Shown in pieces: positions 55,268 to 59,570 of a stretch of DNA of 64,000 nucleotides. The notes beneath the pieces are model-generated. The model saw only the letters and a list, made by a program, of their open reading frames with translations, did no database searches and was not told the DNA's origin. The position numbers and the translations under genes were made by a program. This DNA is from Promethearchaeota archaeon (GTDB lineage: Archaea > Asgardarchaeota > Lokiarchaeia > Sigyniarchaeales > SOKP01), in contig JAHPZA010000004.1 of the NCBI GenBank assembly GCA_019058445.1, forward strand, positions 354,184-418,183. The letters run 5' to 3'. How positions within the stretch are numbered: position 1 is the stretch's first letter; each line of letters starts with the position of its first letter.

Positions 55268-55489
55268 TTAGTCGTCTTCCTCTTCTTCACTCATGAGATC
55301 CTCGATTTTCGCTTCTAGTTCCTCGATTTTTTGATCGATTTCTTCAATTTTTTTAAAGACTTCACACGTTTCACATCCGTCATCTTCTTCACATTGGGGT
55401 AATGTATCACATTTTTCTTCTAAAGCATCTCTTTCATCCAATAAATTATCCACTTCTTCTTGAAGTTTCTCAACACTCATAATTTTCAC
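55268..55489 (-). CDS. Small acidic helical-hairpin protein with four Cys
   Basis: Heptad helices flanking C-x5-C-x5-CxxC; strong Asp/Glu bias. Confidence 0.65.
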   Translation of the reverse strand: MKIMSVEKLQEEVDNLLDERDALEEKCDTLPQCEEDDGCETCEVFKKIEEIDQKIEELEAKIEDLMSEEEEDD

Positions 55490-55568: not shown

Positions 55569-56381
55569 TTACGAAAAAGAAGGCAAGAAAAAAACAAGCA
55601 AGATAAGAGCGAATATTATTATGAGAGCTATGGAAAATAGTTTTTTTTTCCTTTTACGCTTATATTTCTGCATTAACTGGGGATCTTCTTTAGGATTTTC
55701 AATAATTCTTTCAACTGTTTCAGAATCTTCGGCAACTACCCTGGATATTTTTTCAAGTTTGCGAATTTCTTTAATTCTCTTTTTCTCATCTGCTATGGCA
55801 TTTTTAATTATCTCAAACGTTTCTTCAGGGAGATCTTCTTCAGCAAGCATGACATCTTTAACTAATAAATCCAATCCAACAGTTAATTTATAATTCATGG
55901 AAAAATTTTTGTCTACAAATTTTTTAATTAGAGAGCTCTTTCCTACTGAAGCGTCGCCAGCTAATAAGACCTTAAATCTAAAATGATTCGAATCAACAAT
56001 TTCACCTAATCGAGGCTTTATATTTAAAAGAGCAACAAGTGCTAATGTTTCAAAAAGTTTGTCTACATTAATATTGTTTAAAGCAGAGGTTTCTATATAA
56101 TCTATTAAATTATTACGATTTACTTTTTGAATTACGATATCTCTTTGAATAGATTCACCAATAGATTTAACTAAATCGATCTTATTACCAACCAAAATTA
56201 TTGGAATATTTCCTGAGCGCTCACGAATATCATCAAAATATATATCAATATTTTCGAATGTTTCATGACGAGTTAAATCGAAAACTAATCCAACAGCGGC
56301 AGTTCCTTTGAAGAAATCAGTTTTGAAAAAATCAAACCGCTCTTGCCCTCCAATATCCCATAAACTCAGAGTAATCCTCAA
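55569..56381 (-). CDS. Circularly permuted Rab-like GTPase (G3-G4-G5-G1-G2) with coiled coil and C-terminal TM anchor
   Basis: WDIGGQERF, GNKID and ETSAL precede GDASVGKS and LTVGLD; polybasic KRKRKKK then a hydrophobic C-terminal helix. Confidence 0.8.
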   Translation of the reverse strand: MRITLSLWDIGGQERFDFFKTDFFKGTAAVGLVFDLTRHETFENIDIYFDDIRERSGNIPIILVGNKIDLVKSIGESIQRDIVIQKVNRNNLIDYIETSALNNINVDKLFETLALVALLNIKPRLGEIVDSNHFRFKVLLAGDASVGKSSLIKKFVDKNFSMNYKLTVGLDLLVKDVMLAEEDLPEETFEIIKNAIADEKKRIKEIRKLEKISRVVAEDSETVERIIENPKEDPQLMQKYKRKRKKKLFSIALIIIFALILLVFFLPSFS

Positions 56382-56552
56382 ATATATTGCGCTCCTCGAA
56401 TCATTTATTTTTCACTATTTTTTCCTAAAAGGATAATGTTTTCAAGAAAATTATTGATATTATAATATTATGGAAAGTATAAATATCTTAAAGTTATTAT
56501 AAAATACTACGATAATGTGAAAAATGAGACTTGTTTTTAAATTTTTGTTGGT

Positions 56553-57518: not shown

Positions 57519-59570
57519 CTAAACTTTCAATTTCTCAATTTTTTCTTCTATCTCTTTATCGAGAGTTATCAATTCTTTTTCCAGATCTTTAATTTCTTGC
57601 GAGATGGTTTCAAATCGCTCTTCTTGGATACTTAGCTTTTTAATGTACTTCTCTTTTAAAGTATTTTCTTGAGAGGTATTGCCTAACACAGAAATATTTT
57701 CTCTCAGTCTTGCCTGTTCTTCAGTCATCTGATATTTTTCATCTTCTAACTTGGATTTCTTGGTATTAAGATCATTCTTTCTGCCTATTAGTTCACCAAT
57801 TTCCTTAAGTTGTGCTTCTAATTCTTGATTTATAAATTTTTGCCGGACATAAAAAGCGACTCGTTTGAGGAGATCTTCTTTTGTATAATTATAAAGATAA
57901 TAGCTCGAATAATCTTCCTTGCGTTCCTTGATTTCAAATTTAACAGCATCCTTAGGCTTAAGAGTTAATTTAAACCGCCAGAAATTAGGAGTCTCTTCTG
58001 GTTCAGTAGGACTTTCTAAAATTTTATACCCATACTGTTTGGGGTGATCTAAATAAAGTTCTTTATCTTCATTAGTTTTATTCTTGATTTTATAAAGTGT
58101 TCTTGAATTGGTATAATAGTATTCATAGCAATATGCTCCTCCAAATGAGATTCTATGAATGTCTTGATTCTGAGAAAAAGTTTCGTGAGTAATTACTACA
58201 GCTTGTTCTACAGCATAATTTAAAAGTCGGGTATCATCTTTATTTAAAAAAGGAATTATTGCTTCCCCGGCAAGGTTATTATCATAAATTATAGTTGCGG
58301 GGCCTCTCTCTAAAGTCAAACCAGAATCATTTGTAACCTCAATACAGGCATTTGGATTTTTATCGTATTCATTCTTATTATAAAGTAGAATTTTTTTTGC
58401 TTTTATTTCTTCAGTTAATATAGGAACAAGTGCACTATGCTTTCTTTTAATAGACACTGGATTTGAGATATTATATTCAAAAAGTTCACCAAGATCTTTT
58501 GTCTGGGTAGATGTTTGAGCCTTGACTTTATCCATTAAGGTTTCATCATCCATATCCGCAGCAAAACCCACGGTAGAGGCGGTCATTCTCCCTCCTGGAG
58601 CTGGTGGAGGCATTCCCCCTCGTGCTACTTGTTTAGCTTTTTCCAAGGCTCGCATAGGCATCGCTTCAGCTTCTTCCATTTTGTACTCTTTGAATTTATC
58701 CATTTCTAAGCCTTCCTCGATTTCAGTCGGTTTAGCACTTAATACGCGAGGAGGTTGAATTATATGTCTTTGAATATAAATAGGTCTATAAAAATCATAA
58801 ATAAACGATACAGGCATTCCAGCGACTAGAGATAATTCAATATCCTCCCAATCTACATTTGTAGTGTTTTCCACCAAGCTCCAACCAGAGAGCAAACATT
58901 TTTGGTCTAGAGCTTGTTGCTTACTCATAATTAACCTATAGGAAGTCTTCCATACTGGCGATTCTCTTATGAAACTGACAATAATTGTTCGTTCACCCTC
59001 TTGTCCTCCTGCTTCGCAATTAATTGTTATCTTTTTTGAATCCTTTTTTTTTCCAGCAATTACCGTGTCTAAGAAAAATTTTAAATCCTTTTGCAAGTCT
59101 TCACTTAAAATCTTAAAGGATGTTATTTCAGAAAAGGGAATCTTAGTAATAACACCATCATCCTTTAATAAAGCCAGTAATTTCTCAAGGACTTTTTCCT
59201 CTTTAACAAATTTTTCAACAAATTCAATTCCCATTATGGTGCCAGAGACTTTTTCACTACTTCCTATCGTTAAGTCTATTGCTGCACCTTTAATTTGAGT
59301 AATAAGAGATGACAGAGAATTTGTATCAGGAACGTTTAACATAATAGATTTTAACAATTGTGATGTCTCTAAAGCAGCATCATATGAAATAGATGAAATA
59401 TACCCTTTTTCGCTTGTATCTAAAACGAAAAGAGACTTCAAAACGTCATTCATTTCATCAATTTTAAACTCAAGTTCAAATGTACCAGTGCCTTTTATTT
59501 TTCCCTCATTTGTAAAGAATGATATTCCAGTTCTATGTATTATGACTTTTTTTACTTTTAATTTATTCAT
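57519..59570 (-). CDS. DUF4139/DUF4140-like protein with C-terminal coiled coil
   Basis: MNDVLKSL.VLD, PVWKTSYRL, VENTT..DW..I.LSLVAG.P.SF, GELFEY, SALVPI. Confidence 0.75.
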   Translation of the reverse strand: MNKLKVKKVIIHRTGISFFTNEGKIKGTGTFELEFKIDEMNDVLKSLFVLDTSEKGYISSISYDAALETSQLLKSIMLNVPDTNSLSSLITQIKGAAIDLTIGSSEKVSGTIMGIEFVEKFVKEEKVLEKLLALLKDDGVITKIPFSEITSFKILSEDLQKDLKFFLDTVIAGKKKDSKKITINCEAGGQEGERTIIVSFIRESPVWKTSYRLIMSKQQALDQKCLLSGWSLVENTTNVDWEDIELSLVAGMPVSFIYDFYRPIYIQRHIIQPPRVLSAKPTEIEEGLEMDKFKEYKMEEAEAMPMRALEKAKQVARGGMPPPAPGGRMTASTVGFAADMDDETLMDKVKAQTSTQTKDLGELFEYNISNPVSIKRKHSALVPILTEEIKAKKILLYNKNEYDKNPNACIEVTNDSGLTLERGPATIIYDNNLAGEAIIPFLNKDDTRLLNYAVEQAVVITHETFSQNQDIHRISFGGAYCYEYYYTNSRTLYKIKNKTNEDKELYLDHPKQYGYKILESPTEPEETPNFWRFKLTLKPKDAVKFEIKERKEDYSSYYLYNYTKEDLLKRVAFYVRQKFINQELEAQLKEIGELIGRKNDLNTKKSKLEDEKYQMTEEQARLRENISVLGNTSQENTLKEKYIKKLSIQEERFETISQEIKDLEKELITLDKEIEEKIEKLKV

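Follow-up and report, generated by a model that had tools for sequence, protein, structure and literature searches.

The locus described here lies in a 64,000-nucleotide stretch of DNA from a Promethearchaeota archaeon (the window: contig JAHPZA010000004.1 of assembly GCA_019058445.1, positions 354,184 to 418,183 of the forward strand), in which a minus-strand open reading frame (ORF) at 55569-56381 encodes a 270-amino acid (aa) protein, identical to the database protein P0001. The coding sequence (55569..56381, -) comprises 270 codons and a stop (55569-55571), and opens with a TTG start (56379-56381), 10 nt upstream of which a Shine-Dalgarno-like GAGGAG can be read (56392..56397, -). Two in-frame stops (56412..56417, -), a TGA (56412-56414) and a TAG (56415-56417), lie 11 and 12 codons upstream of the TTG; they leave 10 open codons before the start, and a longer N-terminus is therefore ruled out. 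Sequence comparison and a structural model together suggest that the gene very probably encodes a functional, membrane-tethered, Rab-like small GTPase with a circularly permuted G domain.

At 63 species-level loci carrying the same gene, stop-to-stop frames have at most 28 codons open upstream of the match, so there is no room for hidden G1-G2 motifs. The TTG start stands at the same codon in about half of the orthologs (~25 loci; loci L023-L083) and the remaining orthologous loci have an ATG one codon further upstream; in most of them a GAGG precedes the TTG or ATG by ~8-12 nt. At several orthologous loci this GAGG overlaps an in-frame TAG (AGTAGAGG...).

A single G domain in permuted order

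The Pfam Ras profile (PF00071) matched the protein with 121.1 bits against a cut-off of 21.6, residues 2-114 falling on profile positions 47-157 and residues 137-183 on positions 1-47, so that both stretches together make up positions 1-157 of 162. No further Pfam domain scored above cut-off in the 270-aa protein. A hidden Markov model (HMM) of 178 positions, trained on 34 canonical small GTPases from the window's own genome, matched the permuted family members listed over positions 57-168 and then 4-56, and phmmer with a canonical GTPase from the window as the query matched the ORF over query positions 46-157 and then 1-42. In a phmmer search of the PDB the top match was Rab7 (E 1.7e-26), with query residues 135-180 on Rab7 8-53 and residues 3-118 on Rab7 57-174; the hairpin turn between beta2 and beta3 is the sole part of the G domain missing from this alignment. 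A solved 'Thorarchaeota Rab' (7ezb) also matched (1e-23), and Foldseek returned Ypt7, Rab7 and Sec4.

The motifs can be read directly from the protein in the order G3 (WDIGGQ, residues 8-13), G4 (NKID, 66-69), G5 (TSA, 98-100), G1 (GDASVGKS, 142-149) and G2 (T167 within YKLTVGLD), and all are intact (GxxxxGKS/T, switch I Thr, DxxGQ, NKxD and an SA-type G5). RabF-like motifs are visible by eye in the switch and interswitch regions (TVGLD, WDIGGQERF, FFKG and LVFDLT). Segment A (residues 1-120; 56022..56381, -) holds beta3, G3/switch II, alpha2 to alpha5, G4 and G5, and corresponds to Pfam Ras 47-157 and Rab7 57-174. It is followed by an alpha5-to-beta1 connector (residues 121-134; 55980..56021, -), recognized by its conservation and modelled with a short strand at 127-130, which bears the signature PRLGE..D..HFRFK: R124 and G126 are invariant and P123, L125, E127, H133 and F134 nearly so. 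The signature runs on into segment B, where R135 and K137 are invariant, with F136 also part of it. Segment B (residues 135-179; 55845..55979, -) contributes beta1, the P-loop (G1), alpha1, switch I with G2 T167, and beta2, corresponding to Pfam Ras 1-47 and Rab7 8-53.

Profile coverage and motif order thus confirmed that the predicted protein has a single Ras/Rab-type G domain, ordered G3-G4-G5-G1-G2 and broken at the beta2-beta3 turn. The initial annotation, made from the sequence of the window, had proposed this order, and every detail of its description that could be checked was right: the profile stretches are complementary and agree with the motif reading, and the Pfam Ras, own-genome HMM and Rab7 alignments all split at the turn where the break had been placed. 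The Rab-like character that it claimed is supported by Rab7 as the best PDB sequence match and by the Rab-type G2, and the in-frame TGA which it took to bar a longer N-terminus was found together with the TAG, with the GAGGAG and the TTG start beside them.

Folding of the two halves

AlphaFold2, run with the family alignment, gave a model with a mean predicted local distance difference test (pLDDT) value of 77.7 and a predicted template modelling (pTM) score of 0.68. The pLDDT was 77-91 over most of both halves and lower in the blocks that contain switch II, switch I and the connector. Alignments of canonical Rab, Rho and Ras chains are confined to model residues 1-120, and Foldseek against the PDB aligned the first half alone; because that method depends on sequence order, the Foldseek half-alignment says nothing on co-folding. 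Known permuted GTPases, in turn, align over the alpha5-to-beta1 junction, within model residues 12-178, over 120-144 residues and with Z scores of 10-11. They are 8pv1_Cd of the Chaetomium pre-60S particle (model 12-178, 142 residues, Z 11.0), YjeQ (2yv5; model 22-178, 127 residues, Z 10.4), RsgA (6h4d; model 21-178, 120 residues, Z 10.4), YlqF (1puj; model 13-177, 136 residues, Z 10.1) and YqeH (3h2y; model 16-179, 131 residues, Z 9.9); the pre-60S chain 3jct_m likewise aligns over the junction. Since permuted GTPases align across the junction, the model represents one G domain made from both halves. In silico, therefore, folding in cis unites both halves in a single nucleotide-binding domain of the ordinary type, and the co-folding on which the initial annotation had made its proposal depend is borne out by the model together with the junction-spanning alignments to YlqF, RsgA/YjeQ, YqeH, 8pv1_Cd and 3jct_m.

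Circular permutants and proteins with a cut hairpin are prone to three-dimensional domain swapping, and it may be that the G domain of each chain is completed by beta1-alpha1-beta2 from a partner chain, so that nucleotide binding would depend on an oligomer at the membrane. A connector of 14 residues, with beta2 and beta3 ending freely, would permit such swapping, which no computed result favours. Set against it are the monomer model, which folds in cis with a pLDDT of 84-91 in much of both halves, and the topology of that model across the junction, which agrees with monomeric permuted GTPases. We therefore consider a swapped dimer or oligomer very unlikely.

Selection on the permuted gene

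The permuted order is kept in the best 120 homologs from a collection of 5.8 billion proteins, with WDxxGQ at about position 8, and the same permuted stand-alone gene is present at the 63 loci, drawn from GTDB species genomes. Thirteen residues are invariant in the 120-sequence alignment (D9, G12, Q13, N66, K67, D69, T98, S99, G142, G147, K148, S149 and T167). Pairwise ratios of nonsynonymous to synonymous substitution rates (dN/dS) against three orthologs were 0.10-0.19 for segment A, 0.06-0.17 for segment B, 0.2 for the helix that follows beta2, 0.5-1.0 for the spacer and transmembrane (TM) segment, and 0.13-0.24 overall; in the TM segment the hydrophobic character alone is conserved. Judged by these ratios, both halves of the G domain are under purifying selection.

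These results bear on the case that the initial annotation had named as damaging to its proposal, namely that the homologs are tandem two-GTPase proteins of which this one is a truncated remnant. The expectation failed, as the 120 best homologs and the 63 loci are all permuted and stand-alone. A decaying or truncated tandem protein, in which G3-G5 of a first copy became joined to G1-G2 of a second in a non-functional product, nevertheless has some points in its favour: tandem di- and multi-GTPases occur in Asgard archaea and in the window's genome (P0137 and P0138; C6:609090-610865), and the permuted query aligns without a break across the domain junctions of tandem GTPases. Yet a remnant would have to account for identical boundaries in 63 species and 120 protein clusters, for catalytic residues that are all invariant, for an overall dN/dS of 0.13-0.24 and for conserved start signals, as well as for a conserved family-specific connector, a conserved post-beta2 helix and the long stem on which the clade of 27 permuted sequences sits in the tree described below. 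Such a decaying remnant is, in our judgement, extremely improbable, and the preferred reading remains that of a functional permuted GTPase.

The C-terminal tail

Beta2 leads into a DLPEET segment and a long amphipathic basic helix (residues 183-217; 55731..55835, -), modelled by AlphaFold as a helix at 186-217. A DLPxET segment and a basic amphipathic helix in this position are common to all members of the family, and P185, E187, K193 and E210 are nearly invariant in short and long forms alike. Further on, the sequence reads as a polybasic juxtamembrane patch, KYKRKRKKK (residues 239-247; 55641..55667, -), and then as a C-terminal TM helix (residues ~248-267; 55581..55640, -), predicted from a Kyte-Doolittle 19-residue mean of 3.34 (residues 248-266 of 270) and lying within an AlphaFold helix at 234-269. 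The single TM helix thus stands close to the C-terminus, 3-4 residues from it, with the polybasic patch on its N-terminal side, which is the topology of a tail anchor.

The initial annotation had described a coiled coil, a polybasic patch and a TM helix as the end of the protein; the patch and the TM helix, and with them the predicted membrane anchor, stood, and the supposed coiled coil corresponds to the amphipathic helix. Its suggestion of a direct coupling between switch I and stalk is sound as a statement of chain topology, beta2 leading straight into the conserved helix.

Among the homologs, 42 long forms continue through a spacer and a polybasic patch into a TM helix whose end lies 0-5 residues from the C-terminus, and short forms (207-243 aa) are without a TM helix. 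Parsimony on a quick tree, with the root assumed to lie towards the subfamily II introduced below, placed the TM state at the base of subfamily I and called for three losses or more. This suggests that the TM anchor is ancestral and has been lost several times, and that the protein of the window keeps the ancestral-looking anchored architecture.

Relatives and origin

The window belongs to a 4.6-Mb Asgard metagenome-assembled genome (MAG), 92.6% complete, with 56 Ras-like ORFs, among which the one at 55569-56381 alone is permuted. We built a maximum-likelihood tree (IQ-TREE, LG+C20) from 29 permuted domains put back into canonical order, together with every canonical domain from the genome and the closest representatives in the database. 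In it, 27 permuted sequences form one clade with 100% ultrafast bootstrap and 97% support in the Shimodaira-Hasegawa-like approximate likelihood ratio test (SH-aLRT), on a long stem and divided into two subfamilies. Subfamily I, to which the protein of the window belongs, has members of 207-282 aa. In subfamily II the permuted domain is at the N-terminus; P0133, P0136 and P0142 are shorter members, and in the long members (P0127, P0128, P0135, P0139 and P0143) it is followed by a Pro-rich, probably disordered linker and a conserved C-terminal membrane domain. This domain is ~200 aa long (ERKTTVFY...PGC..VP...LDARKD...ITP..G), ends in hydrophobic helices and found no match in Pfam. The same type of architecture was also seen at L086:5992-7551 and at L110 (G165:C17), and on one Promethearchaeota MAG contig the permuted paralogs P0136 (316 aa) and P0142 (284 aa) are adjacent (L104:1730-3686).

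Two sequences fall outside the clade. The L086 protein, which carries the subfamily II C-terminal domain and whose G3 has degenerated to WDPPGD, forms a long branch just outside it, and an approximately unbiased (AU) test did not reject the union of all 28 sequences including L086 (p = 0.51). P0182, a 243-aa Rab7-like protein from the transcriptome of the foraminiferan Bolivina argentea (EukProt), also reads G3-G4-G5-G1-G2 and groups with eukaryote-like Rabs (99/95), and is unrelated to the archaeal permuted clade. This foraminiferan sequence may be a eukaryotic permutant of separate origin, or else part of a transcript for a tandem Rab.

We sampled 301 Asgard genomes, scoring the best 10-11 candidates in each, and found matches in two GTDB families of one order only (30 of 68 genomes in the first and 2 of 7 in the second, where subfamily II-type matches occur); in the other families searched, no match was found among those candidates. 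Full scoring of ten genomes gave one copy in each of five carriers; no copy was found in the remaining five, of which three are congeners (82%, 98% and 99% complete) and two are further members of the same family. The named homologs are all Asgard MAGs, and with carriers confined to one Asgard order the Asgard origin that the initial annotation had supposed is upheld. Several MAGs with NCBI titles naming Hermod-, Hod-, Thor- or Odinarchaeota (loci L025, L026, L042, L068 and others) carry the same syntenic locus. Their neighbour proteins are up to 88% identical and GTDB places all carriers in one order; these submitter labels look unreliable.

The nearest canonical relatives in the tree are P0194 (Asgard), the paralog C10:375276-375800 of the window's own genome, which is 47% and 54% identical over the two halves, and the lokiarchaeal tandem di-GTPases P0137 and P0138. 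The wider group has support of 90/79. It is most likely that the archaeal permutant arose once, in one Asgard order. Its source may have been a canonical Asgard Rab-like GTPase that was duplicated in tandem and then lost the outer half-domains; the presence of canonical, tandem and permuted forms in the same lineage fits such a duplication-and-truncation route, and does not prove it. Among the other Ras-like proteins of the window's genome, those at C6:609090-610865, C3:78334-79299 and C9:472070-473719 are tandem or multi-domain, and one of them has 591 aa with two full G domains.

Comparison with known GTPases

The order G3-G4-G5-G1-G2 was earlier argued to be structurally impossible, and to date its sole documented case is the rare cpRAS domain of eukaryotic CPRas proteins, a Ras-superfamily G domain that is likewise broken at the beta2-beta3 turn (Elias & Novotny 2008, Biol Direct 3:21; PMC2430557). 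That domain is eukaryote-specific and belongs to the RAS family proper, with a typical 'TIE' G2 motif, and it is found within proteins of 840-3933 aa that have VWA or COG2373/alpha-2-macroglobulin-like regions (PMC2430557). The statement on cpRAS in the initial annotation agrees with this account. The archaeal permutant shares the motif order and the break point, but has the Rab-type G2 YKLTVGLD in place of TIE, and the PDB entries that it matches best are those of Rab7, Rab11 and Sec4 rather than of Ras. It is, moreover, an archaeal stand-alone protein of 270 aa with a helix and a predicted TM anchor, in contrast to the large multidomain eukaryotic proteins. Using the published description of cpRAS for comparison, we infer that the archaeal permutant is not a member of that group and that its origin was independent, because members of the archaeal family resemble Rabs, occur by themselves or joined to membrane modules, and are nested within the Asgard GTPases. 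A full-text literature search, in which subscription journals were mostly outside coverage so that an earlier description is possible, found no archaeal G3-G4-G5-G1-G2 GTPase described and returned the cpRAS paper only; the literature on Asgard Arf proteins that it found does not mention permutation.

In the YlqF/YawG (YRG) and RsgA/YjeQ/YqeH GTPases the order is G4-G5-G1-G2-G3, with the break after beta3 and switch II at the C-terminal end (PMC2430557). They resemble the archaeal permutant in having a permuted G domain, a covalent alpha5-to-beta1 link and a C-terminal module placed directly on a switch element. The break in the archaeal protein, however, is one strand earlier and G3 (8-13) stands ahead of G4 (66-69), so that its order is not that of YRG, and the structural alignments show 14-22% sequence identity. 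The YRG and RsgA/YjeQ/YqeH families are TRAFAC ribosome-assembly GTPases and not Ras/Rab-like.

By eye, stretches that resemble RabF motifs can be made out in the archaeal protein (TVGLD, LSLWDIGGQERF, FFKG and LVFDLT). Eukaryotic Rabs have the canonical order, C-terminal Cys prenylation and a membrane cycle based on the guanine nucleotide dissociation inhibitor (GDI), whereas the archaeal protein is permuted, ends in ...FFLPSFS, is without any Cys and has a proteinaceous TM anchor by prediction. The closest comparison is with the canonical paralog of the same genome (G000 C10:375276-375800, 174 aa) and the di-GTPases P0137 (MBN2150267.1) and P0138, whose beta2 and beta3 are near-identical to those of the permutant (YKLTVGVDILTKDV...ATLSIWDIGGQQRF). 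These have the normal order and an intact hairpin with the turn TPGQM, and neither the PRLGE..HFRFK connector nor a post-beta2 helix or TM anchor is present in them. In the paralog the sequence is YKLTVGVDILTKDVEF-TPGQM-ATLSIWDIGGQQRF, where the permutant has ...YKLTVGLDLLVKDVML at the end and (M)RITLSLWDIGGQERF at the start.

Putative mechanism and significance

The chain runs from beta3/switch II through G4, G5 and alpha5 over the new connector to beta1/P-loop, alpha1 and switch I, and leaves the domain at the end of beta2, followed by the conserved amphipathic helix, a variable spacer, the polybasic patch and the single predicted C-terminal TM helix. The positive-inside rule would put the G domain on the cytoplasmic face of the membrane, where GTP/GDP cycling may recruit effectors. 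In such an arrangement the TM anchor would stand in for the prenyl groups of eukaryotic Rabs, which would mean no release from the membrane and no GDI-type extraction. In Ras and Rab structures the beta2-beta3 turn adjoins the C-terminal end of alpha5, so the new termini should emerge on roughly the old, membrane-facing side, and with a different element as the point of tethering the G domain could retain its orientation. The tether leaves from the interswitch strand beta2, not from alpha5, and it may be speculated that nucleotide-dependent motion of switch I and the interswitch is transmitted directly to the membrane-proximal helix.

Whether the permutation itself is adaptive is a separate question. 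By analogy with Arf and Sar, the cut hairpin and the tether on beta2 could free the interswitch for a register shift upon GTP binding that is passed through the conserved DLPxET helix to the membrane, an idea that we regard as rather unlikely. Were it correct, the protein would be a prenylation-independent, mechanically coupled and possibly membrane-remodelling switch, and archaea would have an alternative way of coupling small GTPases to membranes that predates or parallels the eukaryotic ones.

Several observations weigh against a functional, membrane-tethered GTPase. The listed sequencing runs that contain the sequence are sediment or soil metagenome DNA throughout, with no RNA run among them. 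The AlphaFold model is moderate in quality at the mean pLDDT and pTM given above, and the sister relation to tandem di-GTPases is weakly supported (57-58% bootstrap). As many orthologs lack the TM helix, the family can do without membrane anchoring. A congener whose genome is 99% complete has the methyltransferase gene and the gene for a 73-aa protein, the neighbours of the GTPase in the window, 90 bp apart and with no trace of the GTPase between them; the permuted GTPase gene is thus dispensable in close relatives. Finally, the gene context at the 63 loci allows no effector, guanine nucleotide exchange factor (GEF) or GTPase-activating protein (GAP) to be inferred.

Some of these points would suit a permanently bound, non-cycling membrane scaffold, a pseudo-switch in which the permutation is a neutral frozen accident without mechanistic meaning: close relatives have lost the gene and kept no trace of it, loss of the TM tail has occurred repeatedly, and the gene is not linked to one for a GEF, GAP or effector. 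Invariance nonetheless extends to the catalytic Gln of DxxGQ, to the Thr of switch I and to the P-loop, which is unexpected for a protein that does not cycle, and the connector and post-beta2 helix are strongly conserved. We consequently think a frozen scaffold distinctly unlikely, and continue to favour a functional Rab-like GTPase tethered to the membrane.

On this preferred reading, the family would constitute a second, independent and strongly conserved case of the G3-G4-G5-G1-G2 order, found in stand-alone proteins, and would indicate that a Ras fold can withstand the cutting of its interswitch hairpin. With a domain of ~190 residues it should be tractable for structural and biochemical work, compared with the 840-3933-aa CPRas proteins. 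Asgard archaea are the closest prokaryotic relatives of eukaryotes, and a permutant tied there to a putative proteinaceous anchor bears on how small GTPases may have been attached to membranes before prenylation and GDI cycling. The coexisting canonical, tandem and permuted forms are, in addition, candidate stages of a duplication-and-truncation route to circular permutation.

Neighbouring genes

The gene lies in a same-strand series that recurs in 40-57 of the 63 loci, formed by genes for a DUF4139-like 683-aa protein, a class I methyltransferase, the permuted GTPase, a 73-aa acidic Cys-rich protein and an acyl-CoA dehydrogenase, the last of which occurs on either strand. In the window the methyltransferase gene is upstream of the GTPase gene and ends 171 bp away from it. 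The 683-aa protein (57519-59570, -) is without a Pfam match and has a coiled-coil-like C-terminus; a protein-atlas search grouped it (score 0.99) with clusters of DUF4139 type that come from Promethearchaeota and from bacteria, and its gene is upstream of the GTPase gene in 44 of the 63 loci. The 73-aa acidic protein (55268-55489, -) has a C-x5-C-x6-C-x2-C pattern with helical flanks and a weak HSBP1-like Pfam match below cut-off; its gene is downstream of the GTPase gene in 52 of the 63 loci, and is also present at L108 and L109, where the GTPase is absent. Another genus has neither the methyltransferase nor the permuted GTPase. In ~30 loci an opposite-strand gene for a 331-aa protein stands between the GTPase gene and the 73-aa gene (for example L065:6718-7713, -); it does not occur in the window. 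As the cluster persists without the GTPase and admits this insertion, we draw no conclusion on partners, and the link among these genes is positional, not functional. By eye, the 331-aa protein appears to have a SWIM-like Cys/His motif and, after it, an HD-like region.

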